The translations under genes were made by a program, and so were the position numbers. The notes under the pieces are model-generated. The model saw nothing but the letters and a program-made list of their open reading frames with translations, was not told the origin of the DNA and ran no database searches. From positions 9,107 to 73,106 of the forward strand of contig CAYYXF010000001.1 of NCBI GenBank assembly GCA_964475545.1: a stretch of 64,000 nt of DNA, read 5' to 3'. Positions 211 through 61,761 of the stretch are shown piece by piece. This DNA is from an uncultured Candidatus Bathyarchaeia archaeon (GTDB taxonomy: Archaea > Thermoproteota > Bathyarchaeia > Bathyarchaeales > Bathycorpusculaceae). Each line of letters opens with the position of its first letter. The stretch's first letter is position 1.

Positions 211-774
211 TCACACGCTGCTCTCTGCTTGCTTCCTTACCTTAGCTAGCTCCTCACACCGATTCTTCACAACGTCATAAATTTTTCTACGCAGTTCCTC
301 TCCGAACATTTTCTGTTCTCTGACAAGCAGCGCTTTCCTGGCCAGTTCAACATCGCCTAAGCCGTTGAACCAGGCTTCAAAGTCTCCCCGGTTCGTATGA
401 AATTCTATCGAACCTGGATCAATGGTCATGATTTTCTCACACAAGTCTTGCAGACTTGCGGCATGAATGCCCAGCGGTTTTCCATAATCAGCATAGAACT
501 GGAAGGATTTTTCCATAGGCATATACGCCAAAATCTCGGATGCTTTTTCCTGGTCAATGTCGGGAAGACCTAGCGTCTTCTTTCCTTTCTCGGTTATACA
601 GTAGAACCCCTTCTCAGACGACACTGCATACCCCAAACGTGTGAGCCCTATAATGTGCATCATAACCGAAGGAAAGTTGACACCTGTATCCTTCGCTATC
701 TCTGTAGCTTTAGCCGGCTTGTCGAGCACCCACATAGTTTCAAGGATCAGCCGTTTAACAGGTGATACACTCAT
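211..774 (-). CDS. Winged-helix DNA-binding protein with a C-terminal domain of unknown function
   Basis: 187-aa ORF. The N-terminus (VKRLILETMWVLDKPAKATEIAKDTGVNFPSVMMHIIGLTRLGY) has a MarR/ArsR-like wHTH pattern. The C-terminal half (FQFYADYG..IEFHTNRGDFEAWF) is not assignable by eye. It is divergent from a methyltransferase/glycosyltransferase cluster. Confidence 0.55.
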   Translation of the reverse strand: MSVSPVKRLILETMWVLDKPAKATEIAKDTGVNFPSVMMHIIGLTRLGYAVSSEKGFYCITEKGKKTLGLPDIDQEKASEILAYMPMEKSFQFYADYGKPLGIHAASLQDLCEKIMTIDPGSIEFHTNRGDFEAWFNGLGDVELARKALLVREQKMFGEELRRKIYDVVKNRCEELAKVRKQAESSV

Positions 775-897
775 CTTGTTGCACCCTTACTCCCTTATCG
801 TATCTACCTTATAGACTTTTCAAGCTTTCCATGCTCTTACTCAGTGACAAGACCGAGCCTCTGATGAGACCTGTCGCAGCTGGACCATTATGGCAAC

Positions 898-1605
898 ATG
901 CTTATGAATATCAACCCAAACAAGTACTATAACAATAGAAGAACTGCCCGCTGCAATCCAAGGACGAGGAGACAGTTGACTAAATGGGACCAGATTCTGC
1001 CTGAAAAGGTATACAGCCTGGAACAACCTGACGAGTTCATTATCGACTATGTTCGTTTCCTACGCAACAGCAAGAGAACAAAGATACTGGACCTCGCTTG
1101 CGGCGCAGGGCGGCACGTTGTCTTCATGGCACAGCAAGGGATCAGAGTCAGCGGAACGGATGTCTCAGGAACAGGTTTGGGAATGACGAGAGAGCGGCTT
1201 AGGAAACGGGCATTGAGGGCTGATCTCGTTAAATCAGTGATGACACATTTGCCTTACAGAGATTCATGTTTTGACGCCGTAATATGCACTCGGGCTATTT
1301 ATCATCAAAAACTTGCAGAAATCAGAGAAACTCTCTCGGAAACACGCAGGGTTCTACGAAGAGGCGGCGCCGTTCTCATTGACTTTCTGTCGAAGAAAAC
1401 ATACAGCTATAGAAAAGGCGATGAAATTGAAGAAAACTCATTTGTCGAAACAGAAGGCCCTGAAAAGGGAGTCATCCATCATTTCGCTGACAAAAAAGAG
1501 CTAGAACATCTTTTCAATTGCTTTGAAATACTTCGCATAGAATTGCGCGAGAAGGAAGTTGAAGGCAAACTCCGAAGCCGTCTGATAGTCCAGGCAACTA
1601 AATGA
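898..1605 (+). CDS. Class I SAM-dependent methyltransferase
   Basis: 235-aa ORF with SAM-binding motif I (ILDLACGAGRH), an acidic motif II (GTDVS) and a post-I pattern typical of Methyltransf_11/25 proteins. The start is ambiguous (ATG at 898 or 904). Confidence 0.8.
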   Translation: MLMNINPNKYYNNRRTARCNPRTRRQLTKWDQILPEKVYSLEQPDEFIIDYVRFLRNSKRTKILDLACGAGRHVVFMAQQGIRVSGTDVSGTGLGMTRERLRKRALRADLVKSVMTHLPYRDSCFDAVICTRAIYHQKLAEIRETLSETRRVLRRGGAVLIDFLSKKTYSYRKGDEIEENSFVETEGPEKGVIHHFADKKELEHLFNCFEILRIELREKEVEGKLRSRLIVQATK

Positions 1606-1687
1606 TGTATTATCACTGAGGAAGGTAAATAAGTAATGCTTTTGTAAGCATAAGGCAACGTTGGGAAATCGAAGACGGTGAAAAACA

Positions 1688-2938
1688 ATGAAGATGGCAG
1701 TGCTTGTTTACGAGTACCCCCCGAAGATTGTGGGCGGTTTGGGGACATATGCAGCTGAAATTACGCGCAAGTTTGTCCTGATGGACAACGATATAACCAT
1801 TTTCACGATGAATGATGATACAGGCAGTCTTCCAACACGCGAAATTTGGCGAGGCATAGAAATCCACCGCCCCATAGACATCGACGTTTCGGACTCACTT
1901 CCAGACGTAATCGCAGAAGACATCAAAAAATGGGGCAGAGGCATCCATCTGTTCTCCAAAATTCTTGTTTACAACTACCTGAGTGCCTCAAAACTAGTCA
2001 ACGAACTCATCAGAAAAGAAGGCATAAAATACGACCTTGTGGTTGCCCATGACTGGCTCTCAGCAATAGGTGGAATAACCGTCAAGAAAGAAGTCGGGCT
2101 GCCGCTGGCTTTCCATGTTCACTCAACTGAAAAAGGAAGAACACTAGGAAACGGCTCAGAAACTGTAAGCAACATTGAACTCCACTGTGCCATGGCAGCT
2201 GACGTGATAGTCACCGTTTCCTACGCCATGAAAGACGAGCTCACAAAGCTTGGGTTCCCAAAAGACAAGATACAAGTATGCTACAACGGTGTCGACCCGC
2301 AGAAATACAGCCCAGAAACAGTAAATGCTGAGCAAATCAAAAAAGTCAGAGAATTCTACGGCATAAAGGATGGCGAACTAATGATTCTCTTTCTGGGCAG
2401 ACTAGTAGGGGTAAAGGGAGTCGACAAACTCATAATGGCCATGCCACATGTTTTACAGAAAATACCAAAGGCGAAACTTGTCATCGTAGGCCTCGGCGAC
2501 CTGCAAGAATACTTGTCTAACCTAGTCAAAGCCACAAAAATGCAGGACTACGTGAAATTCCGCTTCGACTTCATCCCAGAAGAAGAACGCATTCTCCACT
2601 ATGCCGCATGCGACGTGGCTGTCTTCCCAAGCCTGTACGAACCCTTCGGGATCGTTGCGCTAGAAGCGATGAGCATGGAACGCCCGGTCGTAGTCGGCGC
2701 AGCAGGCGTAAGTGGAATGCGAGAAATAGTCATCTGCTGCGGCGAAGAACAATGCGGCTATCACGTGAACCCAAGCAACCCTTCAGACATAGCTTGGGGC
2801 ATAAACAGCGCCCTAGAAAATCCTGAGAAAATCAAATGGCTGGGCAAGAATGGCAGGCGCCGAGTCCTGAGCGAGTTTACATGGGACAAGATAGCTGAAA
2901 GAACGTTAGAGGTATACGAGCAGACCATAAAACGTTGA
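1688..2938 (+). CDS. Glycosyltransferase, GT4/GT5 type (glycogen-synthase-like fold)
   Basis: 416-aa ORF. The N-terminus (AVLVYEYPPKIVGGLGTY) has the (K/R)xGGL-like motif. The C-terminal E-x7-E motif is PSLYEPFGIVALEAM. A GGTGA-like element sits upstream of the ATG. Confidence 0.85.
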   Translation: MKMAVLVYEYPPKIVGGLGTYAAEITRKFVLMDNDITIFTMNDDTGSLPTREIWRGIEIHRPIDIDVSDSLPDVIAEDIKKWGRGIHLFSKILVYNYLSASKLVNELIRKEGIKYDLVVAHDWLSAIGGITVKKEVGLPLAFHVHSTEKGRTLGNGSETVSNIELHCAMAADVIVTVSYAMKDELTKLGFPKDKIQVCYNGVDPQKYSPETVNAEQIKKVREFYGIKDGELMILFLGRLVGVKGVDKLIMAMPHVLQKIPKAKLVIVGLGDLQEYLSNLVKATKMQDYVKFRFDFIPEEERILHYAACDVAVFPSLYEPFGIVALEAMSMERPVVVGAAGVSGMREIVICCGEEQCGYHVNPSNPSDIAWGINSALENPEKIKWLGKNGRRRVLSEFTWDKIAERTLEVYEQTIKR

Positions 2939-3588
2939 GCCTCAGCTCGTTCAAACGAAATGGTGAACCCTTGGATTTTGAAAGCCTAAGCTTAAGAAGA
3001 AGGATTGCCAGAGAGGCCGCGAACCTCCTATATTCCGGAGTTGAAAAAGAGTACAAACAGGCAAAACTTAAAGCTGCAAAAGCTTTTGGAGCAAATCTTC
3101 TTCCAACAAATCTTGAAGTTGCAATGGAACTGGACAGAGCAGCAGAAGAGAACGAAGGCCCAGCCAGGCATGATCGATTAGTCGCAATGCGAAGGGAAGC
3201 CCTAGCGCTGATGGAAATCCTGAAAGAATATAACCCCGTGCTGACTGGAAGCGTTTGGCGCGGAACAATACATCATGGTAGTGACATAGACATAGTTGTT
3301 TACCATGATCAGCCTGAAGAGGTCTTGAAAATACTAAGACGCAACAGCGTCAAGGTAACCCTAGCTGAACAAGTAGCCGTGACAAAGAAAGGAAGCAGGA
3401 AGGGCTCTTTTCACATACACGCAGAGTCTCTGGCTGGAGAAGAGGTAGAGATCAAAGTCTGCAGCCCCGAAGAAGCGGAAGTCAGAGTCAAATGCGAGAT
3501 ATATGGAGATCAGGTCGTGGGCCTTCGAACTGAGGAAGTGAGGAGGGTTCTTGGGCAAAATCCAGTGCAACGATTTGTGCCTTTCTAA
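2935..3588 (+). CDS. Pol-beta-superfamily nucleotidyltransferase domain protein
   Basis: 217-aa ORF. The TTG start overlaps the upstream stop (TTGA), suggesting translational coupling. It carries the GS-x(n)-DxD signature (TGSVWRGTIHHGSDIDIVVY) of minimal nucleotidyltransferases. Confidence 0.6.
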   Translation: MSLSSFKRNGEPLDFESLSLRRRIAREAANLLYSGVEKEYKQAKLKAAKAFGANLLPTNLEVAMELDRAAEENEGPARHDRLVAMRREALALMEILKEYNPVLTGSVWRGTIHHGSDIDIVVYHDQPEEVLKILRRNSVKVTLAEQVAVTKKGSRKGSFHIHAESLAGEEVEIKVCSPEEAEVRVKCEIYGDQVVGLRTEEVRRVLGQNPVQRFVPF

Positions 3589-3687
3589 ATTAGATGCCTC
3601 CCAAGACTGATTTGCCGCTTGCCGAATAGATGTTTAAATATGGCAATTTCCCCTAAATAACATGGAAAAGCTTCGCTTCAGCTGAGT

Positions 3688-4038
3688 GTGCCCATGGCAT
3701 TCGACAAGGAAACGATGAAAAGGATGTTCCCAAACCTTGCCAAGGAGCTAGACCCTGACGATAACAAGGTGGCAATAAACTCAGTGCGGACAGACACACC
3801 AACAGGGGAAAGTGCATCTTCAAAACGTTTTGTACACTACATGCCAGATGTAATAGACTTCATTCGCCGTTGCGACGCAATAGAGCAAGCAGAAGAAATA
3901 ATCGCGTACATGGAAAGAAAAGGTGAAATTCAAAGGCAATATGCTGACAAACTTAGGAACCAATTGAAAAAAGAAGGTCTAAGAAGCTTCGGACCAAAAA
4001 AGGAACACGATTACTACCTTAAACACGGTGAACCCTGA
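3688..4038 (+). CDS. Small conserved-looking hypothetical protein
   Basis: 116-aa ORF (the ATG at 3694 is the likelier start). It is hydrophilic with a basic C-terminus. A TTTAAATA TATA-like box lies at 3633-3640. I cannot assign a family by eye. Confidence 0.45.
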   Translation: MPMAFDKETMKRMFPNLAKELDPDDNKVAINSVRTDTPTGESASSKRFVHYMPDVIDFIRRCDAIEQAEEIIAYMERKGEIQRQYADKLRNQLKKEGLRSFGPKKEHDYYLKHGEP

Positions 4039-4234
4039 CCACAGGACCAGTTGATGCCAGCTCAAGTTCTCAATGCCGTGATAAGTGAACGTTGACCATG
4101 TTTCTATCAGTATTTCCTGAGGCGAATGGGCAAATATATACGCGGCCAGGGCTGGATATTTCCAAAAGTAAATAAATGGGCTTATCAATAGATAGACAGC
4201 TTAAAACTCGGGATGTCAGACGGAGGAAGACCCA

Positions 4235-5950
4235 ATGAAAAGAACAGCTTCACTGTTTACTATTTTAACTGTTGCCATGATAGTCCTTATATCAATTTCA
4301 TTCAACACCAGACCAGTCAAGGCGGAAGGAGAATACAGCATAGACCAAGTCTTTCACACAGTAAAAACCATGTATAATGGCTATGTTTTCATAAATGACA
4401 CTATGACGTTGAATGTGACCGCGGGAGGACCCACTGAATTCTTAATAGGTTTCCCAGACAGATACGGTCAGAGCGTTCTCAAATGTCTTGCCTTCAGCGG
4501 ATCAGAGATCTTTCCTGTGTCTCTTAACGTACCATTTGGCGGTCGCATGGGTTTCTATGGTGCGAGAGTGGATTTTCCGCTCGGAGCACCGCAAACTTTC
4601 ACCGTGGGATTTGTACTCTCCAACAGTCTCGTTATACAGGATCCCCAGAACGAGAGTCTGTATGGGTTGGACTTTCCGGCCTATCCGAGTTTGGTGAAAA
4701 AAGCTGGTCTCTGCAACGTATCAATCATCATTCCGCAAGGCGCTCTGTTCATGGGCGGGACAGTGAACAGTCTTGCGTACGGGCAGGAATTGCAGGAATT
4801 TACGAGTTTACCTGCACGCTTGGCTTTCCTAATATCCGTGGAGAGAATTACGATAGTTGACATAACAAATCTAAACCGCGACATAATCGTAAACGAGTTT
4901 GGTGGAATTAGCGGCGTTGACACCTATGATATCACAAATATGGCATCGCTGCCATTGACGGCCTTTGACGTGTTCCTGCCTCGTAACGCTTCCGATCCTC
5001 AAGCAACGGACCAGTTTGGAAGAAAGATGACTGACTCAACACAATCAGACGCGGATACGAACCGCTACGAAGTCGTTTTCAACGAGCGGGTCGAAAGTGG
5101 TAAGTCAAGCACATTTACCGTGATGTATTCTTTGCCTGGGAATTATCTTGCGCATGAAAGCGCTAACGTTTTCGCTTTGACACTTCCGTTGTTCGAATAC
5201 GAAAATTACTATACTGATCAGGCATGGGTCACCATCACCTTGCCTGAGGGCGCGAATGTCAATCTACTTGAGTACAACCTGACTGGAGAGAATTACAGCA
5301 TTGGAAGAGGAGTCTATCAGGAGACGGTTTCACTGAACCAAGAGCGCATCCTTGTGCTGGACAAGGTTACGCTTGGAGTCTCGTATGAATATGACCCGCT
5401 CTGGGCATCGTTCCGTCCAACCATGTGGGTTTGGGCAGCCGCAATCGTTGGATGCTTGGTTGGTGCTGTTGTTTGGCAGAGACCCAAGGAGCCAAGTCGC
5501 GCTCCTGTATCCGCTGTGGCATCGAAACTTGGTCCAGAATATTTCAGATCATTCGTCGACACTTATGATGAGAAGAAGAAGATAGATTTGGAACTGGACT
5601 CCTTGGAAGCAAGGATGGAAAAGGGCAGGATCCCAAGACAAAGATACAGGGTTCTGAGAAGAACGTTGGAGGCACGTCTCAGCGCAGTGTCCAGAAACCT
5701 AACGGAGTTCAAGGAGAGAATGCGTGCCGCTGGTGGCCAATATTCAGGGTTGATGCTACAGCTTGAAGTTGCAGAAGCCGAAATAAGCGAAGTCAAGGCC
5801 AATATCAAGAATGCTGAGACCCTTCACAATCGGGGAGAGCTCTCGTTAGAAGCTTACCGAAACCGTCTAGCAGATTATCAACGCAAGAAAGAAAAAGCTG
5901 AAACTACGATTAACGGAATTCTCCTGAGACTACGTGAGGAAATCCGATAA
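4235..5950 (+). CDS. Secreted type-I membrane glycoprotein, ribophorin I (OST1)-like candidate
   Basis: 571-aa ORF. It has a signal peptide (..RPVKA/EG), a ~365-aa ectodomain with 7 N-x-S/T sequons, one TM (residues 396-414) and a ~155-aa cytosolic coiled coil. That is the same topology as eukaryotic ribophorin I. Local matches as I recall RPN1: VTITLPEGANVN vs IILPEGAKNI, and RDIIVNEFGGISGVDTY vs [13 protein letters not shown]. The tail GELSLEAYRNRLADYQRKKEKAETTINGIL resembles [30 protein letters not shown]. Confidence 0.5.
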   Translation: MKRTASLFTILTVAMIVLISISFNTRPVKAEGEYSIDQVFHTVKTMYNGYVFINDTMTLNVTAGGPTEFLIGFPDRYGQSVLKCLAFSGSEIFPVSLNVPFGGRMGFYGARVDFPLGAPQTFTVGFVLSNSLVIQDPQNESLYGLDFPAYPSLVKKAGLCNVSIIIPQGALFMGGTVNSLAYGQELQEFTSLPARLAFLISVERITIVDITNLNRDIIVNEFGGISGVDTYDITNMASLPLTAFDVFLPRNASDPQATDQFGRKMTDSTQSDADTNRYEVVFNERVESGKSSTFTVMYSLPGNYLAHESANVFALTLPLFEYENYYTDQAWVTITLPEGANVNLLEYNLTGENYSIGRGVYQETVSLNQERILVLDKVTLGVSYEYDPLWASFRPTMWVWAAAIVGCLVGAVVWQRPKEPSRAPVSAVASKLGPEYFRSFVDTYDEKKKIDLELDSLEARMEKGRIPRQRYRVLRRTLEARLSAVSRNLTEFKERMRAAGGQYSGLMLQLEVAEAEISEVKANIKNAETLHNRGELSLEAYRNRLADYQRKKEKAETTINGILLRLREEIR

Positions 5951-6016
5951 ATCAACCTAAATGCTTTTATGCCAGCACCAGATTTTCAATGAAATTCACG
6001 CAAAGAGGAGAAGCAT

Positions 6017-6199
6017 ATGGTTAAGATAGCAATTGATAACCATAAATGCACCGGATGCGGAACATGCAAAGACACATGCCCCGTGGGCGTCTATGAAATA
6101 AAGGACGGAAAGTCAGTCGCTGTGAAACCAGACGAATGCCTAGTCTGCAGAGCATGTGAGGTCCAATGTGCCGAAGGAGCAATCCAAGTCATAGAGTAA
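6017..6199 (+). CDS. fdx: 2x[4Fe-4S] ferredoxin
   Basis: 60-aa ORF with two CxxCxxCxxxCP-type clusters (CTGCGTCKDTCP and CLVCRACEVQC). A GGAG-containing element sits upstream of the ATG. Confidence 0.9.
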   Translation: MVKIAIDNHKCTGCGTCKDTCPVGVYEIKDGKSVAVKPDECLVCRACEVQCAEGAIQVIE

Positions 6200-7906: not shown

Positions 7907-9490
7907 TTGGAGAGTTGTTCACCTTTGAGCACACCTGAGAAACTGCGGAAAGCCGTTGAGCTAACCATTGCCGCAGGATACCAGCTAGACCAGGAGGCAT
8001 TTGGATTCTTAACCATAATAGCCGCAACGTCAGACCCGAGTGAAGTAATGAGCGAAGCGATAAAAAAGATGGAAAGCTTAAGCGAGAAACCGCCATTCAT
8101 TGAAAGAGGCTTCTTGGAGCAATTGCTAGAAAAAGCGAAATCAGCAGAAGAAATAGTGGATATCGCGCCAGAAGAACGAACTCCAGAACTGCCCGAGTCA
8201 CAGACAAAACAGTTGACAGAGGGGAAGACGTACTTCCACTCCTACGCAAAGGAAGTCGAGGCAGACATTACCATAATCGAAGATCCTAGCACCAAACTGC
8301 ACACAAGCGGCACTGTCGACGATTTTCTGGCCTATTTCCGAGATCGCTTTAAGCGAACAGAGAAGATGCTGCGACAAAGGATAGACGTCAAAAGCGCTTC
8401 ATCAGTCTTAGACGCTCTTAAGGCTGCGCCCAAGACGAAGATGAAGATTATTGGCATGGTAACTGAGAAGAGAGAATCGAAACAGCGGACTATCCTATCT
8501 GTTGAGGATTTGCAGGCCAATATCACGGTGCTCGTGCCGCAGAACGCCTCTGAAGAGCTAAGGAAAAAGGCACAACTTCTCTTGCTTGATCAAATAGTCT
8601 GCCTAAGCGTTGTCAAGACAAGAAGCAACCTCCTGGTTGCTGACGACATAATCTTGCCTGAAGTAGGTCAAAAACAGCCCCACAAGGCCCCGATTCCAGT
8701 CTACGCTGTGTTAACTTCAGACATGCATGTTGGCAGTACACAGTTCCAAAGAGAATCGTTCAACCGTTTCATTTTATGGCTGAACGGCAAATACGGAAAC
8801 GACCAGATGAAGGAAATCGCAAGCCATGTCAAGTACGTTCTGATTGCTGGCGACATAGTCGATGGTGTAGGAATCTACCCCAATCAGGTCAAGGAATTGG
8901 CAATCAGAGACGTATATAGGCAATATCGGGTAGCTGCAAAATATATGGAACAAATCCCTGACTACATACAGGTAGTGGTCATACCAGGAAATCACGACGC
9001 ACCAAGAAAAGCCTTGCCTCAGCCTGCGATTTCAAATGAGTATTTGGAGACTCTTCAAGAGTCAAGAGCTGTTTGCTCTCTTGGCAACCCTTGTTATCTC
9101 AGTTTGCACGGTGTAGAAGTGCTGATGTATCACGGGCGTAGCTTGGACGACGTGATCTCCACAGTCCCAGACATGAATCATAACAACCCGGAGAAAGCAA
9201 TGCGTCTGCTTTTGCAGAGCCGCCATTTAGCGCCAATTTACGGTGCGAAGACCACGCTGTCACCGGAGAGCAGAGATTTCCTTGTCATAGAGCGCGTACC
9301 AGACATATTTCACGCCGGCCACATCCATGCGCTAGGCTACTGCAATTACCGTGGGGTTTTGGTTGTAAATTCAGGCGGTTGGCAAGCACAGACAGGTTAC
9401 ATGCAGAGACTCGGGTTTATGCCGACTCCTGGGAAGGTGCCAGTTGTGAACCTTCAAACGTTGGAATCCATGGTAGTTTCGTTCTCCTAG
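7907..9490 (+). CDS. polB: DNA polymerase II (PolD) small subunit DP1
   Basis: 527-aa ORF (TTG start as called). It carries the calcineurin-like phosphoesterase motifs DMHVGS, GDIVDGVG, IPGNHD and AGHIHA, plus the OB-fold region typical of DP1. Confidence 0.9.
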   Translation: MESCSPLSTPEKLRKAVELTIAAGYQLDQEAFGFLTIIAATSDPSEVMSEAIKKMESLSEKPPFIERGFLEQLLEKAKSAEEIVDIAPEERTPELPESQTKQLTEGKTYFHSYAKEVEADITIIEDPSTKLHTSGTVDDFLAYFRDRFKRTEKMLRQRIDVKSASSVLDALKAAPKTKMKIIGMVTEKRESKQRTILSVEDLQANITVLVPQNASEELRKKAQLLLLDQIVCLSVVKTRSNLLVADDIILPEVGQKQPHKAPIPVYAVLTSDMHVGSTQFQRESFNRFILWLNGKYGNDQMKEIASHVKYVLIAGDIVDGVGIYPNQVKELAIRDVYRQYRVAAKYMEQIPDYIQVVVIPGNHDAPRKALPQPAISNEYLETLQESRAVCSLGNPCYLSLHGVEVLMYHGRSLDDVISTVPDMNHNNPEKAMRLLLQSRHLAPIYGAKTTLSPESRDFLVIERVPDIFHAGHIHALGYCNYRGVLVVNSGGWQAQTGYMQRLGFMPTPGKVPVVNLQTLESMVVSFS

Positions 9491-9543
9491 AATAACGTGT
9501 ATTGAACCGCACCCCTACGAGGATCTCGATTCCGGAGACACCC

Positions 9544-10794
9544 TCAGCTTCCACCGCCCCTGTGCTTTGAAAGGCATTTGGGCTCGTAGTCAACCAAACG
9601 TCCAAGCCTGTTATCACTGGCGAAAACGTTCTTGATGAGACTACGCGCTATTTCAAGTCTTATCTTCTTTGTGCGACCGTACCTCCCCATACTTATGACT
9701 TTCGCATTTAATAGGCCCATGGAGTCAAGCTCATTCACTAGCGAGCTTAGCCTTCGCTGGGTCAAGGGGGTCACCCCCATCTCTGCACATAGTTCATTGT
9801 AAACCTCGTAAATTTCGCCTGTAATTGCCCTAAGCACGTCAGCCTTGTTCAAGTGGTAGACACTTAGGACGACAAGTTTGGAATGCAAAGTCAAATTCTT
9901 CAGGGCTTCAATTACGCGGTTATGTTCAATGTGCTTCTCAGCCTCTCGAACGTGATCTTCGAGCACGACGCTTGCGCCTGATCGCTCCGCAACCTCGCCT
10001 GCAACTCGAAGAAGATCCAAAGCTCGCCGCGCATCCCCATGTTCAGCTGCAGCCAAGGCGGAACAGAGGCTCAGCGCTGACTCAGACAGCGCACCTTCAC
10101 AGAAAGCTGAAGTCGCACGCTCAAAAAGAATATTCCTTAGCTCACTGGCATCATAAGGCCTGAAAACCATCTCCTCTTCGCTGAGAGAACTCAGAACGCG
10201 AGGATCCAAAAACTCCTTCAACCGGAGATCGTTAGATATACCAATTAGGGAAACCTTACTGCTGGATAGAGTTTCATTTACCCTTGTCAATTCATAAAGA
10301 ACACCATCGCCTCGGATCTTTATCAACGCATCAGCTTCGTCCAAAGCTATTATGAATATAACCCTCGACACGTCCAGACCCGCCCTGAAACGATCAAACA
10401 ACTCTCCCACTGAGAGTCCCGTGAAGGGGACTGAAAGGCCTACACTCTGACATAAGCTAGCGAAGATCCGATATTCTGATCCAACCATCCGGCAGTTCAC
10501 ATAACAGAACTTGACCGGCGCGCTGAACTCCTTTGCTTTGGTCTCGAGATGACTCAGCACATATTTCGCTACTGCCGTCTTGCCAGTCCCAGTCTTCCCA
10601 TAGATGAAGACGTTGGAGCTGCGAGCACCCTTCAAAGCCGGAGCCACCGTCTCGCCAAGCTGTCTGATTTGCTCTTCCCTGTGAGGCAACCTGTCAGGCA
10701 AATAGTCATCTCGTAGGACCTCCCTATCCTTGAATATCTTTGCATTGTTGACGAATTTTTCGAACACGACATCAAGTATGTTAGGTTCAGGCAT
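9544..10794 (-). CDS. cdc6: Orc1/Cdc6 replication initiator
   Basis: AAA+ Walker A (GKTGTGKT), Walker B (IIALDEAD), sensor regions and a C-terminal winged helix. The ORF track starts at GTG 10827. The ATG at 10794 gives a 416-aa protein of typical length. It lies directly next to ORB repeats. Confidence 0.9.
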   Translation of the reverse strand: MPEPNILDVVFEKFVNNAKIFKDREVLRDDYLPDRLPHREEQIRQLGETVAPALKGARSSNVFIYGKTGTGKTAVAKYVLSHLETKAKEFSAPVKFCYVNCRMVGSEYRIFASLCQSVGLSVPFTGLSVGELFDRFRAGLDVSRVIFIIALDEADALIKIRGDGVLYELTRVNETLSSSKVSLIGISNDLRLKEFLDPRVLSSLSEEEMVFRPYDASELRNILFERATSAFCEGALSESALSLCSALAAAEHGDARRALDLLRVAGEVAERSGASVVLEDHVREAEKHIEHNRVIEALKNLTLHSKLVVLSVYHLNKADVLRAITGEIYEVYNELCAEMGVTPLTQRRLSSLVNELDSMGLLNAKVISMGRYGRTKKIRLEIARSLIKNVFASDNRLGRLVDYEPKCLSKHRGGGS

Positions 10795-10940
10795 ACATTT
10801 TCCCTCAGCAAGCTCCAGAGGTAGCACCTCTCTTTCCAGTTGAAGACATAAGCTCTGTCGTACAGAAAAATGGATGTACCCTACAAGAATCCTAAAACAG
10901 AAGCAGCTTGAACGTAGACTAAATCACCTGACATGACTGC

Positions 10941-10965
10941 CACACCCCAGAATTTCCTGTGGAAC
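10941..10965 (-). repeat. ORB-like origin recognition box 1
   Basis: The reverse complement reads GTTCCACAGGAAATTCTGGGGTGTG. It is 20/25 identical to ORB-2 and in inverted orientation. Confidence 0.75.
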
Positions 10966-11124
10966 TCTTTATTCCTTTGAGAAGTAATGTTGATTTCTTC
11001 TTCGTAGAAGAAAATACTCTGAACGGTAAGTATACAAAAATGACTATATTGCTTACTGTTGAACAAATTAAACATACACTACAAAGTTTCACATTACTAG
11101 TGCACTGAGTTTGCAGGCCTGAAT

Positions 11125-11149
11125 GTTCCAGTGGAAATCATGGGGTGTC
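11125..11149 (+). repeat. ORB-like origin recognition box 2
   Basis: GTTCCAGTGGAAATCATGGGGTGTC. It contains the classic archaeal ORB core TCCAGTGGAAA followed by a G-string. Confidence 0.75.
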
Positions 11150-11390
11150 TCGCTAGCAGTTCATCCTTTTTTCAAATATCCTCAGCACCGCCTGCATCCT
11201 GTACTTGTTAGTACACTTTCATCGCTAGCTACCTTCGCTTATTTGGCTCGCAGTTTGATAGATTCTCCCCCATATTTTTAGCGCACGCGTGTTCACTTTT
11301 TGAGAAGACCTTGTGAAATTAGCTTGATACTGTTTGATTTTCAGCCCTCGTTTCCAAATTATTTACTGCTTTATGCCTGTTTTATGTGAA

Positions 11391-11418
11391 CTAGACACCC
11401 CTGCGTTTCTACTGGAGA
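11391..11418 (-). repeat. ORB-like origin recognition box 3
   Basis: The reverse complement reads TCTCCAGTAGAAACGCAGGGGTGTCTAG, with the same TCCAGTnGAAA..GGGGTGTC architecture as ORB-2. Confidence 0.65.
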
Positions 11419-11612
11419 TCAGCTTATTTCCTTCAGTCCTTTCCGGTTCTGTCTTTCAGACAGCTGTGAAGCGTGTGTTGCATAACAGACTGCAATTTAT
11501 CCTTCTTTTCAGATTTCCTCCCTGAAAAGCGTCCTCTAGCCAGGCGCCGTTTCACCATAACAGCTATAACCTGTGAACTGTAGACTTGTGAACACCCAAG
11601 CGTGTTTCGCCA

Positions 11613-12044
11613 ATGCCTACGAGAAAGATGCGCGTCGAACTATTCGATAATGATGGCAATCGGTATACGATAGCGTTCGAAGGGCAAGTGACTAGAGAGA
11701 AAGCAGTACGGCTACTAGATTTGGTTGAACTCCTCGGTGGAATGCCTAATGAAGGAGGCAACGCTGAACCAAACCTGAATGTTCTTGGTAATGGACTCTC
11801 AAAATATGGCAGGGTTCGAGCGGTTCTCCAAAGGAGCTTTCCTCTCATTTGGTTCTGTTCAAAAGAGGTTCAAAATGCTTATGAGCAGGAATTCAAGGAG
11901 CCAATAACACTGAGCACTGTGGCTACGTACCTCTCAAGGCTGGCGACGAAAGGAGCGCTGATGAAGGCCGGGGCTCTTAACAGCCTAAAGTACAGGCTCG
12001 TGCAAAGCCCTCCAAAGGCCCAAGTTAAGCAATCAATACACTGA
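11613..12044 (+). CDS. Hypothetical protein with a C-terminal winged-helix-like domain
   Basis: 143-aa ORF immediately right of the origin. The C-terminal half (ITLSTVATYLSRLATKGALMKAG..LKYRL) looks like a wHTH recognition helix plus wing. Confidence 0.5.
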   Translation: MPTRKMRVELFDNDGNRYTIAFEGQVTREKAVRLLDLVELLGGMPNEGGNAEPNLNVLGNGLSKYGRVRAVLQRSFPLIWFCSKEVQNAYEQEFKEPITLSTVATYLSRLATKGALMKAGALNSLKYRLVQSPPKAQVKQSIH

Positions 12045-12070
12045 TTGGAAGAAACAAGCTCGCGCAGCGT

Positions 12071-12784
12071 CTAAGCTGCTGCACTTTCGGTCTTCTTCAA
12101 AAGTGCTTCCATCTCTTTCTTAACAGTATACTTGAATGGAATTTTGCTAGTATCCCTCTCTAAGTAGCCACCCTCGTAAAGCTTCTTCATCAGCCTTGCC
12201 GTGTGCTCGCGACTGAGTTTCACGCGATCCTTGATCTCAGGGGCCGTCTTCGGGCCCTCAGACGCCAACATTTCAAGAACAGACAATTCGGTCTCAGTTA
12301 GGGGTGCTAGAGCCTTGTCCCTCTTAAATGGAATCGCAGCCTCAACGTTGGCTTCAGGGATGACGGAGAGTTGCTTGACCTGTTCGTCCAAACCGGAGAT
12401 TCTTGCTGCAAAATTTGATTGTGAATTGATGACTTCCCGGACATTTTTGCCAAATTCCTCCAATCTTGACAGCATGCTGTCCTTATCTTGTAGGGCGGTG
12501 GAAACTCTGGCATCCATGGTTTGTGTAGCCTTTTGCACATCTTCCATCTTCTTCAAGGTTCCGTCAACCTTGGAAGAAAGGGCTTCCACTTTGAAAGCAG
12601 TAGCGTCAATTTTCTCGGCTTCGCGCTGCAATTGTCTACTATAACTCAATACAATGTCTTCTACAGCCTCTCTTGCCTTTTCGTATTCTCTTTGGGCCTT
12701 GCGGAGGATCCTATAATACCTGATCGCAGCACCTGCTGTCACAACAATCAAGAAGCTCATAAGAACCGTCAGCATATCTATCAC
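12071..12784 (-). CDS. Membrane-anchored coiled-coil protein with a C-terminal MarR-like wHTH
   Basis: 237-aa ORF. It has an N-terminal TM (LTVLMSFLIVVTAGAAI), ~130 aa of heptad-rich coiled coil, then LTETELSVLEMLASEGPKTAPEIKDRVKLSREHTARLMKKLYEGGYLER (wHTH). Confidence 0.6.
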   Translation of the reverse strand: MIDMLTVLMSFLIVVTAGAAIRYYRILRKAQREYEKAREAVEDIVLSYSRQLQREAEKIDATAFKVEALSSKVDGTLKKMEDVQKATQTMDARVSTALQDKDSMLSRLEEFGKNVREVINSQSNFAARISGLDEQVKQLSVIPEANVEAAIPFKRDKALAPLTETELSVLEMLASEGPKTAPEIKDRVKLSREHTARLMKKLYEGGYLERDTSKIPFKYTVKKEMEALLKKTESAAA

Positions 12785-12832
12785 GTGATTTCCCTCCGTG
12801 ATCTAAGTGTGATTACAGGCAACTCCATCACG

Positions 12833-12849
12833 TTGCGTCACACATCACA
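12833..12849 (+). repeat. 17-mer repeat copy C (TTGCGTCACACATCACA)
   Basis: It shares GTCACACATCACA exactly with copy A. It lies 17-33 nt downstream (minus sense) of a TTAAAT TATA-like element (12865-12870), at the expected TSS of the 12071-12784 gene. Confidence 0.5.
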
Positions 12850-12904
12850 CTCATTCCATACGAGATTTAAGTCTTATGGTGTTTTTGCCTGGCTGATGGT
12901 CGCA

Positions 12905-12921
12905 TGACGTCACACATCACA
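12905..12921 (+). repeat. 17-mer repeat copy A (TGACGTCACACATCACA)
   Basis: It contains the palindrome TGACGTCA fused to CACATCACA. It forms an inverted repeat with copy B (16/17 identity). Confidence 0.5.
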
Positions 12922-13063
12922 ATGGGGTCGCCGGCGGGCTCTCTTCGGTGATAAGGAATTGCTGTGCGATAACTGCCCTTTTTCTCGTCCTTTTTGGTTT
13001 TCGGGCTTGTCCGAAGCTTTTTTCTCTGTCCGTTTCTTTCGGTGTGTTTTGTTGGGCGTAGCT

Positions 13064-13080
13064 TGTGATTTGTGACGTCA
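13064..13080 (-). repeat. 17-mer repeat copy B (reverse complement TGACGTCACAAATCACA)
   Basis: Inverted copy of A with one mismatch. It overlaps the stop codon of the 13078-13557 gene. Confidence 0.5.
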
Positions 13081-13557
13081 CGGGGACCTTTTTGATGGAC
13101 TGGAGAGCTGTTTTAGGCTCATTTCTAGCTGTTCCCTGACCATTTCTATAACTTTTAGGTGACTTCCAAGCTCCTCACCCTTGTCAGGTAGGTGCTTGTA
13201 TGCTTCGAGGTATGTGTGGAGTTTGTTTGCTATCTCAAGGTAGGGGTCAAGAGCCGTGTCTTCAAACACTCCCAAGTAGCCCAAGAGTAGTATAGTATAG
13301 ATGGACTTTATGACATTCTCTTTGGCCTGTGCCAGAGTCCTGTTAAAGGCTCCGCGGCTTATTTTGGCCTTTGTTAGCCTCAATTGGGCCTTTTCGTCGT
13401 ATTTCAGCTGTTTCCCAGTGATGCTCTCGGCCAAAATGTCAATGAGCAGGGTTTCGAGCTGTGTCTTCGTTAAGTGGCTGTTTTTGGCCAGTATATTAGT
13501 TATGGGGTCGTTTAGGGAGCTATTTATCCACAGTTGGATGTCTTCTTTAAGCTTCAT
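13078..13557 (-). CDS. Hypothetical protein, possible Tfx/sigma-70-region-4-like HTH
   Basis: 159-aa ORF. The segment LTKTQLETLL...ISRGAFNRTLAQAKENVIKSIYTI resembles the LTxRQ..vL...SRanVs..e..AreNI.kA..T pattern of Tfx/LuxR-type HTH proteins. The similarity is weak. Confidence 0.4.
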   Translation of the reverse strand: MKLKEDIQLWINSSLNDPITNILAKNSHLTKTQLETLLIDILAESITGKQLKYDEKAQLRLTKAKISRGAFNRTLAQAKENVIKSIYTILLLGYLGVFEDTALDPYLEIANKLHTYLEAYKHLPDKGEELGSHLKVIEMVREQLEMSLKQLSSPSKRSP

Positions 13558-13690
13558 TATTGGTGTCCGTCCGCCCTTTGGAAAGGATACAGTTTCGTAT
13601 ACCTGCTCTGCTTTTAAATCTGTCGCGTTTTGGTGATTTGCACGCCAGCGTTCCTTTCACAAGCATTTTATCTCCTAATAGAGAACGCAT

Positions 13691-14878
13691 ATGGAGGAGT
13701 GCACATTGCCTTCGGGGTTTGAGCCCGCAGACCGCCTGAAACGCTTGAAATCGTCTGGAATACGCCGCTTTTTCAGTTCGGCGAAGAAAATGCCTGACAC
13801 TGTCAATTTAAGCGTTGGAGAGTCGGACTTTTGTCCCCCAGAGTATGTGGTTGACGCGAGTGCTCGAGCCGGAGGTGAGGGGAAGATGCATTACGAACCC
13901 ACCAATGGGTTACCTGAGTTGCGTGAAGCCCTAGCACAGAAGGCGCGTAAGGAGTATGGCTTGGGCTACAATCCGGACAATGAGGTTCTGATCACTGTAG
14001 GTGCCAGTGAGGCGATTTTCGCCACATTATTTGGGATAGTGAACCCAGGCGACGAGGTCCTTGTTCCGGACCCAGGCTTTGTGCTCTATGCACCCTGTGT
14101 GAGGCTGGTAGGCGGTGTCCCAATTTCTGTTCCGTTGCCGGAGGAGCGTGGTTTCAGATTGTGTGCTGATGATGTGATGTCACTAATCACAGATCGATCA
14201 CGTGTGATTATCCTGAACTATCCTAACAATCCCACTGGAGGCGTTCTTACATATGGGGAAGTTGTAGCTCTGGCAAAGGTTGCGGTTGAGCGTGATCTGA
14301 TCGTGATTTCTGATGAGGTTTATGAGAAGTTAGTCTATGATGGTGCTGGGCACCACTGCTTGGCAGTCTTTCCAGGCATGCGAGAGAGAACACTGATTGC
14401 CAATTCATTCTCTAAGACATATGCTATGACTGGCTTGCGAGTTGGATATGCTTATGGTCCCAGTGAGCTCACTTCGGCTCCTTGGCTTGTACACGAATAC
14501 ACTGTTACTTGTGTTAACAGCTTGGCACAGTATGCTGCTTTGGCAGCTTTGAACGGACCTCAGGATTTTGTAAAGGATCTGGTGAGGGAGTTTGGCAGAC
14601 GGCGAAACCGTGTTCACAAGCGGCTCAACGCGATTGGGGGCTTTCGTTGCGCCCTTCCGAAAGGCGCGTTTTACGCGTTCCCAAACATAGAAACGTTTAG
14701 CATGTCGTCGGAGCAATTCTCTGGGTCACTCGTGAAAGATGCTGGAGTCATCACGGTTCCAGGTTCTGCCTTCGGCAGCCACGGCGAAGGCTATGTCCAG
14801 ATTTCCTACGCTGCCGCGTACGAAGTCCTTGAAGAGGCATTGGATCGCATTGAAACTAGGGTCAGGAAATTAGGATGA
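13691..14878 (+). CDS. Class I/II PLP-dependent aminotransferase (aspartate aminotransferase-like)
   Basis: 395-aa ORF with the PLP-lysine motif SFSKTYAMTGLRVGY, an NPTG motif (NYPNNPTGG) and family-typical length. Confidence 0.85.
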   Translation: MEECTLPSGFEPADRLKRLKSSGIRRFFSSAKKMPDTVNLSVGESDFCPPEYVVDASARAGGEGKMHYEPTNGLPELREALAQKARKEYGLGYNPDNEVLITVGASEAIFATLFGIVNPGDEVLVPDPGFVLYAPCVRLVGGVPISVPLPEERGFRLCADDVMSLITDRSRVIILNYPNNPTGGVLTYGEVVALAKVAVERDLIVISDEVYEKLVYDGAGHHCLAVFPGMRERTLIANSFSKTYAMTGLRVGYAYGPSELTSAPWLVHEYTVTCVNSLAQYAALAALNGPQDFVKDLVREFGRRRNRVHKRLNAIGGFRCALPKGAFYAFPNIETFSMSSEQFSGSLVKDAGVITVPGSAFGSHGEGYVQISYAAAYEVLEEALDRIETRVRKLG

Positions 14879-14884
14879 TGCCTT

Positions 14885-15718
14885 CTAGAGTTCTTCCGCG
14901 GCTTCCTTCAGCTTGTCGAATAATTCAGGACGTAAATCTCTCAATGTGGGGACGAACGTCTCAACAGGTGTGATATCGGCGTAGTCAATGTTACCCGTGA
15001 CTAGGTCCTCCTCGTCATACTTTGCCTTGACAAGGATTTTTCCTTGGGGTCCAACCAGTCTGCTCCCTCCCCAGAACTGCAAACCATCTTCAATTCCCAC
15101 GAGGTTCACATAAGCAAGAAAAGCGGTGTTTTCTAGGGCCCGTGCCACCGTTAAGGTTTCAAAGAAGGCTCGTCTGACTCCTGGAGACGCTGAAATGCAA
15201 ACGATAAGCTGGGCTCCCTTCAGCCGTGTAAGTCTGGTTACTTCTGGAAAGAAGATGTCATAGCATATGATTAAACCTATTTTCCCAAGCTTCGTGTTGA
15301 AAACTGCTGCCTCATAGCCGGGTCGGAAATACCTTTTCTCCTCGAAGACACTGTGGGTTGGCAAATACATTTTTCGATATTTCCCGATGAAGCCTTGGGG
15401 GCCCACGAGGACAGCCGTGTTGTGTATTGTGGCTTGAGTTCTGTTGCTTAGCTCCGGCATGCCGAATACAATGTGCATTCTTGTTTTCTTCGCGATGGTG
15501 GCTAGAATGTTGGTTGATGGTCCTGGCACTGTTTCTGCAAGCTCGTAGATTTGATCTCTGACAACGTACCCTGTCAATGAAAGTTCCGGAAATATGACGA
15601 TGTCTGCGGATTGCATTTTGGCCTCAGTCAATGTCTTCTCCATCTTCTTCAGATTCTCGGCTTTGTCCCCTGCTTTGCAGCATATTTGTGCTAGGCATAT
15701 CTTGAATTGCTCTTTCAA
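14885..15718 (-). CDS. Carbon-nitrogen hydrolase (nitrilase superfamily); likely glutaminase partner of NadE
   Basis: 277-aa ORF with the catalytic triad context FPELSLTGY (Glu), YRKMYLP (Lys) and LIICYDIFFPE (Cys). It starts 4 nt after the nadE stop on the same strand. Confidence 0.8.
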   Translation of the reverse strand: MKEQFKICLAQICCKAGDKAENLKKMEKTLTEAKMQSADIVIFPELSLTGYVVRDQIYELAETVPGPSTNILATIAKKTRMHIVFGMPELSNRTQATIHNTAVLVGPQGFIGKYRKMYLPTHSVFEEKRYFRPGYEAAVFNTKLGKIGLIICYDIFFPEVTRLTRLKGAQLIVCISASPGVRRAFFETLTVARALENTAFLAYVNLVGIEDGLQFWGGSRLVGPQGKILVKAKYDEEDLVTGNIDYADITPVETFVPTLRDLRPELFDKLKEAAEEL

Positions 15719-15721
15719 TTG

Positions 15722-16558
15722 TTACCCTCTCCTAAGCCTGAAATCTACTCCAACTGTGCGATATCCGATTTTCGTTGTCAGCAACATTCGCCTTTTGTGC
15801 TCCGCGTGAAGCCACCTTTGTTTGACCTCATGAACAATCTCATGCTCAATATTCAACTGCCCAGCTATAGCCTCTTCCTTCATAAAGTGCTCGAGCCCAT
15901 ACAGAATGAGGTCAAGAATCTCATATTCTAGGCCGAGTTCTCCCTCCGCAGTCTGACCTGGCCACAAGGCAGGTGAGGGCGGTTTATTTACGATTTCTTT
16001 CGGTATACCTACATGTCTCGCAAGTTTTTTGACTTGCGTCTTGTACAAGTCCATTATGGGGGATATGTCTGACGCAACGTCTCCCCATTTCGTAAAGTAT
16101 CCCATCATTGTTTCTGACTTATCTGAGCTTCCGCAAACAATCCTGTTGAGCTTGTTTGCATAATAGTAGACGTAGATCATTCGCGTCCTAGCCTTTATGT
16201 TGCCTTTACAGACTCTTTCTCCAGGATCGAAGATTGGGATCGAGTGATAGATGGCTTCTAGGGTTGATGTGACATCACATTCTTCCGCCTCAATTTTGAA
16301 CTTCTTGGCTACGAGCCTGGCATGACGTGCATCAGTAGCGTTGTATGTTTCCTTCTCTGGTAACATAAGCCCATGGACCTTCTTCCCGCCCAAAGCCAAG
16401 GCAGAAAGCGCGGCTACAATGGAGCTGTCAATTCCTCCAGACAAGCCTAGAACCACGCCGTCTGCACCACATTTTTCCAAGTAATCCGTTATGAATCGCA
16501 TTATCTTCGTTTTTATATCTGGCCAGTCTAAGTCTAGAGTTGAAGGTGTCAACTCCAA
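15722..16558 (-). CDS. nadE: NAD+ synthetase
   Basis: 278-aa ORF with the PP-loop ATP pyrophosphatase motif GLSGGIDSS and downstream NadE patterns (GSSDKSE, YFTKWGD). TTG start as called. Confidence 0.9.
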   Translation of the reverse strand: MELTPSTLDLDWPDIKTKIMRFITDYLEKCGADGVVLGLSGGIDSSIVAALSALALGGKKVHGLMLPEKETYNATDARHARLVAKKFKIEAEECDVTSTLEAIYHSIPIFDPGERVCKGNIKARTRMIYVYYYANKLNRIVCGSSDKSETMMGYFTKWGDVASDISPIMDLYKTQVKKLARHVGIPKEIVNKPPSPALWPGQTAEGELGLEYEILDLILYGLEHFMKEEAIAGQLNIEHEIVHEVKQRWLHAEHKRRMLLTTKIGYRTVGVDFRLRRG

Positions 16559-16763
16559 GGAAATGCAGCCTCAGTGTTGTATGGCTGTGGTGGGGTATTT
16601 AAGGACAAGCTAAACGCGTGGAATTCTCATTTAGGTCGAATTATCAATCGCTGATCACCATTACTACTTGCGAAAACCCAGCGTCCATTGTCCTAACATT
16701 TTTAAAGGCAAACATAAAATACTGGAGCAGAGTGGATTCTAGGGCATAGAAGGATAATGAAAA

Positions 16764-17030
16764 ATGGGGCGAAGAAGGAGAAAGGTTGTTCACATCCCCA
16801 AAAAGCGGTTACCCAAGCTTTTTTCTTGCCCAAAGTGTGGTAAGGAAACCGTAAGGGTTGAAATATATCGCGATCAAAAGCGCGCTATAGTGGCTTGCGG
16901 TGGTTGCGGCGTAAAGGAAGAGTTCCCGATCAAGCCCGTGCAGGGCGAGATTGACGTGTACTGCATGTTTACCGACAAATTTTACGGAAGTCCGAGAAGA
17001 CCTTCAGCGACCGAAATTGCAGGTGCATGA
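16764..17030 (+). CDS. Transcription elongation factor 1 (Elf1) homologue, zinc ribbon
   Basis: 88-aa ORF. A basic N-terminus ([14 protein letters not shown]) precedes FSCPKCG...CGGCG, a C4 ribbon with the spacing and flanks of eukaryotic/TACK Elf1. Confidence 0.75.
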
Positions 17031-17043
17031 TAAGCTGATTTCC

Positions 17044-17796: not shown

Positions 17797-18071
17797 AGAT
17801 CAAAAGACATGGAAAAACCGCTTCACTACCCTGGATTCATGTGAACCAAGACCGGCATCATAACCATTACATTGCCATCAGCGCAGTGAATACTTGAGGA
17901 GATTGTAGATCAAGGTGAGGCACAAGGGAAGAGTGATTCACGCTCTTTCTGTGTAGAAACAGAATGGAATACTGGCGCTTTCTGGACTGCTTTTTGATTT
18001 GTTCTTGTCAGAATATAGAAATAAGCTCTGGAAGCAACTAGAACTCAGGGGGAAGTCTCTTGGGGCTTCAG

Positions 18072-56459: not shown

Positions 56460-56475
56460 TCGCAGTCACATTTCA

Positions 56476-57744: not shown

Positions 57745-57904
57745 TTTTAAGTGTCCGCTGTTGCCGTTTATGGTTTTCTAATGAATCGGAGCTGCTGGCT
57801 TGGACTTGCGGCTCCTGTGCCGACAGCGAACAAGCATTATAAGAGTCAGAGGTGTTCATAATGGGCTACTCAGAAGGAGATCGTTATCTTTTTAAGAGTA
57901 TGGA

Positions 57905-60439: not shown

Positions 60440-60453
60440 CTGGAAGCAAACCC

Positions 60454-61293: not shown

Positions 61294-61761
61294 AATTAAG
61301 ATTCGTGCTGCAATGCTTAGGATCGGCGCGAAACCCCACGTGTACCTCGGATTTGGCATTATTGCGGCTCTGTCTATCAAGAATGAGGACTTAGGTGAAA
61401 CGTGTTTGGTTGAAAGCGCGCGCTGCGCAAGAATAGGAAAAGACTGGAACGGCAGCCCCATTCCTAGGAAGAGCAACATTGGAGATACTCACTTCAATGT
61501 TGAGCCTGCGACACCACATGTTCTTTCAGCCGAAAAAGCAGCATAGGCCATACGACACTGTGACGCGCAACCGCCACTCCTACACCCTACAGAATAACTG
61601 AAACACGTGAACACTCAACATAGCCACCTAAACCCACTCACTCTGGAACAGTCACACCAAACGCCAGGAAAAAGCCCGTGACTGAGAAGCAGGTCCAGTT
61701 AGACATAATGTCATCAATAATCCAAACATGGCAAGAAACTAAAACTAGAAAACACGAACAC

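Follow-up and report, generated by a model that had tools for sequence, protein, structure and literature searches.

Ribophorin I, the non-catalytic OST1 subunit of the eukaryotic oligosaccharyltransferase (OST), is usually counted as a eukaryotic signature protein, and its homologues in prokaryotes are attributed to Asgard archaea. Eme et al. (2023) describe Ost1/ribophorin I as 'previously reported in Asgard archaea' and as a prokaryotic rarity, and one sentence in Carilo et al. (2024; PMC11417166) places OST1 and OST3/6 in eukaryotes, TACK and Asgard. The latter study also solved the crystal structure of the cytoplasmic part of Lokiarchaeon MK-D1 OST1 (8WHN) and showed that the cytoplasmic domains of MK-D1 and human OST1 both pull down human ribosomes. 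Here we analyse a stretch of 64,000 nucleotides (the window) from an uncultured Candidatus Bathyarchaeia archaeon (contig CAYYXF010000001.1), which carries a gene for a 571-amino-acid (aa) protein that is almost certainly a member of the ribophorin I/OST1 family.

Identification of an OST1-family protein

The protein was first compared with curated families and with sequences of known structure. Against Pfam it matched PF04597 (Ribophorin_I) with 32.3 bits, above the gathering cut-off of 25 (E 7.6e-8). Residues 241–404 align to profile positions 257–427 of 437, which is the membrane-proximal part. A profile built from 31 relatives (A1) matched human RPN1, in 6S7O_E and five further PDB entries, with an E of 7.4e-8, residues 237–427 aligning to 272–476. 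This alignment takes in the LPEGA motif and runs on through the transmembrane (TM) helix. A preliminary description of this DNA, made from the sequence alone, had proposed the ribophorin I identity and had aligned the LPEGA block with RPN1; the Pfam score and the A1 match bear out the former, and the latter was reproduced by HMMER. A second block aligned there, 'ERITIV...', falls immediately beyond the stretch that HMMER aligned. When all PDB sequences were searched with phmmer there was one real match, to 8WHN_A ('Ribophorin 1 superfamily protein'), covering residues 437–561 (E 3.3e-6) and improving to E 2.5e-8 with the A1 profile. A scan of NCBIfam found no model for the protein, the matches to SMC and Rad50 being coiled-coil noise far under the cut-offs. 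Weak matches to GvpG, CdvA, PUMA_CC and keratin in Pfam and PDB were dismissed as the product of helical composition.

A full-length AlphaFold2 (AF2) model was built from the family alignment, with a predicted local distance difference test (pLDDT) of 82.7 and a predicted template modelling score (pTM) of 0.60. It places strands at 34–385 in two domains, followed by a helix at 390–415, a disordered segment at 414–430 and four long helices. Comparison of the model with the PDB by Foldseek, a check proposed in the preliminary description, returned RPN1/Ost1 chains at all of ranks 1–8 (8B6L_O, 8PN9_E, 6S7O_E, 8AGB_E, 6EZN_A, 7OCI_A, 6C26_1 and 6S7T_E), with E values from 5.5e-26 to 7.8e-20 and target-normalised template modelling scores (TMt) of 0.47–0.62. 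The eight belong to structures of the human Sec61-TRAP-OST-A translocon, of human OST-A/OST-B and, in four cases, of yeast OST. Rank 9 brought beta domains of the integrin and M1-aminopeptidase kind at 3.9e-7, a gap of ~13 orders of magnitude. Because the top eight are all RPN1/Ost1 and the drop that follows is so steep, the model does not point to an unrelated family of surface proteins. The alignments span ~450 columns for yeast Ost1 and ~598 for human RPN1. It is only through the modelled structure that the N-terminal domain is tied to Ost1.

The predicted layout is that of a type I membrane protein (Table 1), in agreement with hydropathy, a small-x-A motif at residue 30, the AF2 TM helix, the enrichment of sequons in the ectodomain and the positive tail. 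The signal-like segment ends in V-K-A(30), followed by E. A30 is invariant and the small-x-A cleavage-type motif is found in 31/31 family members; cleavage of the signal peptide after A30 is predicted from this sequence pattern. Most of the ectodomain, which holds the strands at 34–385, is modelled with a pLDDT above 80. It contains seven N-x-S/T sequons (N54, N60, N139, N161, N251, N348 and N353), and the cytosolic tail has one more (N488), which the preliminary description had left uncounted. Thus, the layout first proposed for the 571-aa open reading frame (ORF) stands, namely a signal-like N-terminus, an ectodomain with seven sequons, a single TM segment at 396–414 and a cytosolic tail. 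The tail had been put at ~155 aa of coiled coil; it is indeed helical and measures 157 aa, but the model gives a four-helix bundle and not a generic coiled coil.

Cytosolic tail

Modelled alone, the tail gave a pLDDT of 94.9 and a pTM of 0.81. Foldseek with this model returned 8WHN as the sole match at ≤1e-3, with template modelling scores of 0.84/0.83 and a root mean square deviation (RMSD) of 2.3 Å over 138 columns. Next came the tail of human RPN1 (8B6L_O), with a query-normalised score (TMq) of 0.64 and an RMSD of 4.2 Å. A search with the MK-D1 OST1 tail as the query yielded 22 partial fragments of 77–231 aa and no full-length Asgard OST1. Sixteen Asgard OST1 tails were combined into a profile, to which the family profile aligned with an hhalign probability of 98.6% (E 1.2e-15), the alignment extending from the last beta strands across the TM helix and all four helices. 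Moreover, the window family and MK-D1 OST1 have the loop motifs R-I-x-x-x-x-Y, GGQ and RGxL(S/P)..AY in common. Some of the OST1 tail fragments in public metagenomes (P0283, P0292 and P0298) carry other names, 'flagellar biosynthesis regulator FlaF', 'seryl-tRNA synthetase' and 'MerR regulator', which are likely mis-annotations through helical composition.

The tail is also the best conserved region of the family. Its mean identity is 72%, whereas the TM helix reaches 63%, the two domains of the ectodomain 55% and 46%, and the linker 44%. Past the TM helix it is net basic (33 K+R vs 25 D+E), and at 23 of its positions a basic residue is found in ≥90% of sequences. These positions cluster around the loop between helices 1 and 2 (K463, R465, R468, R470, R472, R475 and R476). 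The conservation of the tail and its 23 basic positions therefore indicate a conserved cytoplasmic partner. By analogy with the MK-D1 and human domains (PMC11417166), that partner may be the ribosome.

Proposed role and its main alternative

We lean slightly towards a mechanism in which the protein is a partner of AglB and docks the ribosome. The scheme is drawn from published eukaryotic OST/translocon structures and from the MK-D1 pull-down. The protein would be inserted into the membrane in a Sec-dependent manner and its signal peptide would then be removed. Within the cell membrane, the TM helix and the membrane-proximal domain would bind AglB, the STT3 homologue, presumably encoded elsewhere in the genome, whilst the basic cytosolic bundle would hold the ribosome by its large subunit next to the SecYEG channel. 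Secreted and membrane proteins could then be scanned and N-glycosylated as they emerge, that is co-translationally, in an archaeal counterpart of the mammalian OST-A/translocon. The OST1-like protein would probably itself be N-glycosylated at the invariant N54-D-T. An N54-x-T sequon is present in 31/31 sequences and sequon density is 1.3–3.0 per 100 aa in the ectodomain vs 0–1.1 in the tail; taken together, the invariant sequon and the ectodomain enrichment suggest that the protein is a substrate of AglB.

Several observations weigh against this scheme, or against so close a kinship with OST1. The Pfam match is limited to the C-terminal ~40% of the PF04597 model, and identity to the eukaryotic proteins in the Foldseek alignments is 14–16%. 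Sequence searches with the tail do not recover the tail of human RPN1; an alignment of the two in the preliminary description was accordingly not borne out, and the resemblance is one of fold (8B6L_O). No STT3/AglB or OST3/6 domain was found in the 64-kb window when all polytopic ORFs were scanned, the only polytopic proteins being DUF2070, DUF6541 and exosortase-like. The absence of AglB/STT3 beside the gene, noted from the start, thus holds for the whole window. Likewise, AglB/STT3, OST3/6 and other OST subunits are missing within 10 kb of the gene in all of the 17 loci examined, and AglB adjoins it in none of four distant lineages. Therefore, genomic context offers no link to a catalytic subunit. 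The glycosyltransferase family 4 (GT4), nucleotidyltransferase, DUF2095 and ferredoxin neighbours have no established role in N-glycosylation. In the literature, no effect on glycosylation has been reported for any archaeal OST1 and we found no report of an archaeal OST1-AglB complex. The ribosomes in the MK-D1 pull-down were human and not archaeal. Finally, mammalian RPN1 contacts the ribosome at eL28, which is not known as a typical archaeal protein, and therefore the contact would need to differ in archaea.

The main rival is that the OST1 fold works independently of AglB, as a stand-alone ribosome receptor or an accessory of the SecYEG translocon, in keeping with the original notion of a 'ribophorin', or as a chaperone-like binder of nascent secreted chains; N-glycosylation would then proceed without it. 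This rival would account for the ribosome-binding-type bundle showing both the strongest conservation within the protein and the best match to MK-D1 OST1, and for AglB being unlinked to the gene in every locus; archaeal AglB, moreover, is active as a single subunit. However, the parts of the protein that are detectable by sequence against RPN1 and Pfam are the membrane-proximal domain and the TM helix, the elements that touch STT3 and Ost5 in eukaryotic OST structures. The TM helix is well conserved (63%), and in one lineage the gene stands in a glycan-biosynthesis neighbourhood. On this evidence an AglB-independent role seems unlikely to us, although the present data do not separate the two roles. 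Taken whole, the best explanation is that the window encodes an orthologue-grade OST1 member of Bathyarchaeia which acts as a partner of AglB, and we consider this combined reading reasonably probable.

Host, family breadth and ancestry

We scanned one genome per GTDB species for the locus and recovered 10 syntenic loci (L001–L010). Nine of the ten are labelled Candidatus Bathyarchaeia or Bathyarchaeota, and one of these is a 2.17-Mb chromosome. The remaining locus (L004, DASPTR010000160.1) bears a bacterial label, 'Candidatus Acidoferrum sp.'. It has the full Bathyarchaeia block at 59–93% aa identity and, since the same archaeal genes are carried, is a probable mis-bin in a public metagenome-assembled genome (MAG). 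The window also encodes PolD DP1/DP2, Cdc6/Orc1, PcrB, the primase large subunit, SRP54 and Pus10. As members of the kingdom Thermoproteati (TACK), Bathyarchaeia fall outside Asgard; the suspicion of a non-Asgard host was thus well founded, with the single probable mis-bin as the only discordant label.

A word-indexed search found 603 relatives; identity is ≥50% for every one of the best 120, which are ~570 aa long. When 1.84 billion cluster representatives were searched exhaustively with a hidden Markov model (HMM), 597 clusters (50% identity) matched at E≤1e-3, 230 of them at E≤1e-30. In a MAFFT alignment, the full-length sequences among the best 150 of the 597 representatives form 14 groups at 30% identity. 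The most divergent of them match the window protein at 21–26% identity, and lengths stay within 540–620 aa throughout. Members with an organism name are all Bathyarchaeota, Bathyarchaeia or a generic 'Thermoproteota' or 'Nitrososphaerota archaeon', and most relatives carry a precomputed PF04597 tag.

Within Bathyarchaeia, the OST1-like gene appears to be old and to have been passed on vertically. Recent transfer is excluded because of the deep divergence of the family and the position that the gene has kept in the core replication region. Tentatively, and at somewhat less than an even chance, the ancestor that Thermoproteati (TACK) share with Asgard already had an OST1 with its ribosome-docking bundle, which has since been handed down vertically in Bathyarchaeia. 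If so, a multi-subunit, ribosome-coupled co-translational OST would be older than the TACK-Asgard split and not an innovation of Asgard or eukaryotes, and ribophorin I would leave the list of Asgard-restricted eukaryotic signature proteins.

Alternatively, the gene may have moved horizontally from Asgard archaea to Bathyarchaeia, in which case it would not be native to TACK and would reveal little of how old the multi-subunit OST is. Sediment habitats are common to both groups, and the tail is nearer to Asgard OST1 (23% identity, template modelling score 0.84) than to human RPN1. Moreover, all named non-Asgard carriers are Bathyarchaeia or generic Thermoproteota/Nitrososphaerota, and therefore OST1 may be lacking from most other TACK classes. 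Set against this are the depth of the family (~21–26% identity, and 14 clades at 30% among the best 150 of the 597 representatives) and the conserved core-replication position in two deeply separated lineages, which make such a transfer improbable. An ancient transfer into the stem of Bathyarchaeia may be compatible with both the divergence and the gene position.

The last alternative, that this is an unrelated archaeal glycoprotein (surface or S-layer-associated) whose tail is a generic coiled coil and whose likeness to ribophorin is due to chance or composition, could draw on the weak coiled-coil matches (SMC, Rad50, keratin, CdvA and GvpG) and on beta-sandwich ectodomains being common (M1 aminopeptidase N-domains and integrins are among the lower Foldseek matches), but it is effectively refuted by the Foldseek drop from the last Ost1 (7.8e-20) to 3.9e-7, by the hhalign probability of 98.6% for the tail and by 8WHN as the sole significant Foldseek match of the tail. 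The Pfam score above a curated cut-off and the tail loop motifs in common with MK-D1 OST1 also speak against it.

The novelty of these results is limited, as the homology was already visible in Pfam, in GenBank and in one literature mention. A distant family member, KYH37769.1, is named 'dolichyl-diphosphooligosaccharide--protein glycosyltransferase subunit1' in GenBank. The statement in the preliminary description that OST1 is known mainly from Asgard archaea therefore needs qualification; the Asgard papers do say so, but the TACK occurrence, the GenBank name and the PF04597 tags already exist. We found no paper in the literature that analyses OST1 proteins of Bathyarchaeia. What is new is the full-length equivalence in predicted structure, mammalian/Asgard-type tail included, together with the breadth and depth of the family in Bathyarchaeia, where it is ubiquitous, the conservation centred on the tail and a gene-specific upstream element. 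As a consequence, either the lower bound on the age of the non-catalytic OST scaffold moves back in time or an ancient transfer between Asgard and Bathyarchaeia is exposed. Bathyarchaeia would also offer a second abundant archaeal lineage in which to probe ribosome-SecYEG-AglB co-translational coupling without an endoplasmic reticulum (ER). The practical impact is moderate, and the wider question touched is how old a multi-subunit, ribosome-coupled OST is.

Genomic context

The features of the gene, its product and its surroundings are collected in Table 1.

Table 1. Coordinates, within the 64-kb window, of the OST1-like gene, the segments of its product and the conserved surroundings.
Feature	Position	Strand	Details
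Conserved gene block	211–6199		includes the 60-aa ferredoxin, 2x[4Fe-4S]
Conserved non-coding element	4164..4203	+	AAAAGTAAATAAATGG (B recognition element (BRE)/TATA-like block), then GCTTATCAATAGATAGACAGC
GGAGG, Shine-Dalgarno-like	4222..4226	+	8 nt 5′ of the ATG; read from sequence
Coding sequence, ribophorin I/OST1-family protein	4235..5950	+	ATG start, 571 aa, stop codon included
Signal-peptide-like segment, residues 1–30	4235..4324	+	hydropathy peak 1–28; AF2 helix 2–22
Ectodomain, residues 31–388	4325..5398	+	two beta-sandwich domains, ~31–205 and 206–388; LPEGA motif 337–340
Single TM helix, residues 389–415	5399..5479	+	hydropathy peak 395–415; AF2 helix 390–415; aligns to the RPN1 TM helix
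Juxtamembrane linker, residues 416–433	5480..5533	+	flexible, basic, proline-rich; pLDDT <50 at 414–430
Cytosolic four-helix bundle, residues 434–571	5534..5947	+	helices 434–462, 468–499, 502–532, 538–570; OST1 ribosome-binding-domain type
Replication cluster	7907–21476		DP1 7907–9490; Cdc6/Orc1 9544–10827 (−); PcrB/GGGP synthase 16951–17796; DP2 18060–21476

Gene order is fixed in 10/10 loci, running from a winged helix-turn-helix DUF5752 gene (−) through genes for an S-adenosylmethionine methyltransferase, the GT4, the nucleotidyltransferase and DUF2095 to the OST1-like gene and the 60-aa ferredoxin. The GT4 (1688–2938) is 81–94% identical at the aa level across loci where OST1 is 40–71% identical, and its best NCBIfam match is the glgA_Coryne-type glycogen synthase, under the cut-off. 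The replication cluster lies beyond this block, and a replication origin may be situated next to Cdc6. In a distant lineage with a ~23% identical protein (L011), the OST1-like gene is found directly after PolD DP2/PcrB/Elf1/DP1/Cdc6, a core region that it also neighbours in the window.

Linkage of the OST1-like gene to glycan biosynthesis is occasional. A hexapeptide-repeat (LbH) transferase gene adjoins it in three distant lineages (L013–L015, L016 and L017). In the first of these (~9200–17800), genes for a TrmB/PLDc regulator and Trm112 come after the OST1-like gene and are followed, within 6 kb, by those for a GFO/IDH/MocA oxidoreductase, a UDP-sugar dehydrogenase, DUF354 and a Glycos_transf_4 enzyme of the AglH/Alg7 type.

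Elsewhere in the window is a glycan-biosynthesis-like cluster (55290–62778), comprising two GT4 genes (55290–56459 and 56476–57744, both −), a glycosyltransferase family 2 gene (60454–61293, +) and an exosortase/archaeosortase-like gene (61762–62778, −). Between them is a gene (57905–60439, +) for a protein of 844 aa with ~13 TM segments, whose only match is DUF6541. It was considered as a cryptic AglB and rejected, since searches of Pfam, NCBIfam and PDB sequences gave no STT3 match. The protein may instead be an enzyme of the GT-C type. An antisense ORF of 69 aa (3979–4188) with one TM-like segment was similarly rejected as an Ost4/5-like partner, as the intact ORF is not conserved across loci. 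A scan of the whole 64 kb with Rfam found no family at the gathering score, tRNA included, and no ARAGORN search was made.

Upstream element

The non-coding region 5′ of the OST1-like gene (4127–4226) is strongly conserved. Its 16-mer AAAAGTAAATAAATGG (4164–4179) has the same letters in 9/11 aligned loci and is slightly different in L006 and L007. It is retained in L009, although the protein there is 40% identical to that of the window. The 16-mer is single-copy in the window when up to 3 mismatches are allowed, and each close locus has one copy, every time 5′ of the OST1-like gene. The element was not found in the distant lineages examined. A weak inverted repeat (TGGGCT-N15-AGCCYA) comes after AAAAGTAAATAAATGG, and a second TATA-like box, ATGGTTAAATATATACGC, lies at ~4127–4145. 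In the Shine-Dalgarno-like site the GG core is invariant and the full GGAGG is present in most of the 11 aligned loci. A reading as RNA structure was rejected, with RNAalifold giving a weak 6-bp hairpin (−5.98 kcal/mol) with one compensatory pair. Because this hairpin is weak a promoter/operator reading is preferred, and the simplest interpretation of the letters is that the element is probably a gene-specific BRE/TATA promoter with a putative adjacent operator.

Comparison with known OST1 proteins

Among archaeal proteins already in GenBank, KYH37769.1 (P0268, from a sediment MAG) belongs to the same family, with a similar length (~560–610 aa), the same architecture and PolD DP2/PcrB/Elf1/DP1/Cdc6 neighbours. 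However, it is ~23% identical to the window protein and has neither the upstream element nor the GT4-nucleotidyltransferase-DUF2095 block.

Likeness to yeast Ost1 (6EZN_A, 6C26_1, 7OCI_A and 8AGB_E) covers the ectodomain and the TM helix (TMt 0.58–0.62, RMSD 6–7 Å, ~450 columns). The modelled yeast chains are ~430 residues long and the alignments stop at the TM helix. Yeast Ost1 is not known to have a cytosolic four-helix bundle, whereas the Bathyarchaeia protein carries a tail of the mammalian/Asgard type.

With human RPN1, a subunit of OST-A and OST-B (chain E of 6S7O and 8PN9, chain O of 8B6L), the protein has in common a type I layout, two beta-sandwich domains, LPEGA in the membrane-proximal domain, a single TM helix and a C-terminal cytosolic four-helix bundle. 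Foldseek aligned the two over their full length (598 columns, E 5.5e-26). However, identity is 14–15%, the N-terminal domain and the tail are undetectable by sequence, and the tails superpose moderately (TMq 0.64, RMSD 4.2 Å). Moreover, the ectodomain would face the cell exterior in Bathyarchaeia, whereas that of RPN1 faces the ER lumen.

The closest counterpart of the tail is OST1 of Ca. Prometheoarchaeum syntrophicum MK-D1 (WP_147663064.1). The two hosts differ, being Thermoproteati for the window protein and Promethearchaeati for MK-D1, and tail identity is ~23%. Ribosome binding by MK-D1 OST1 is experimental, with human ribosomes, whereas the window protein is known by sequence and model. 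Nevertheless, the overall architecture is as described for the MK-D1 protein (PMC11417166), and the tails are homologous by sequence and near-identical in fold, with shared loop motifs and basic patches.

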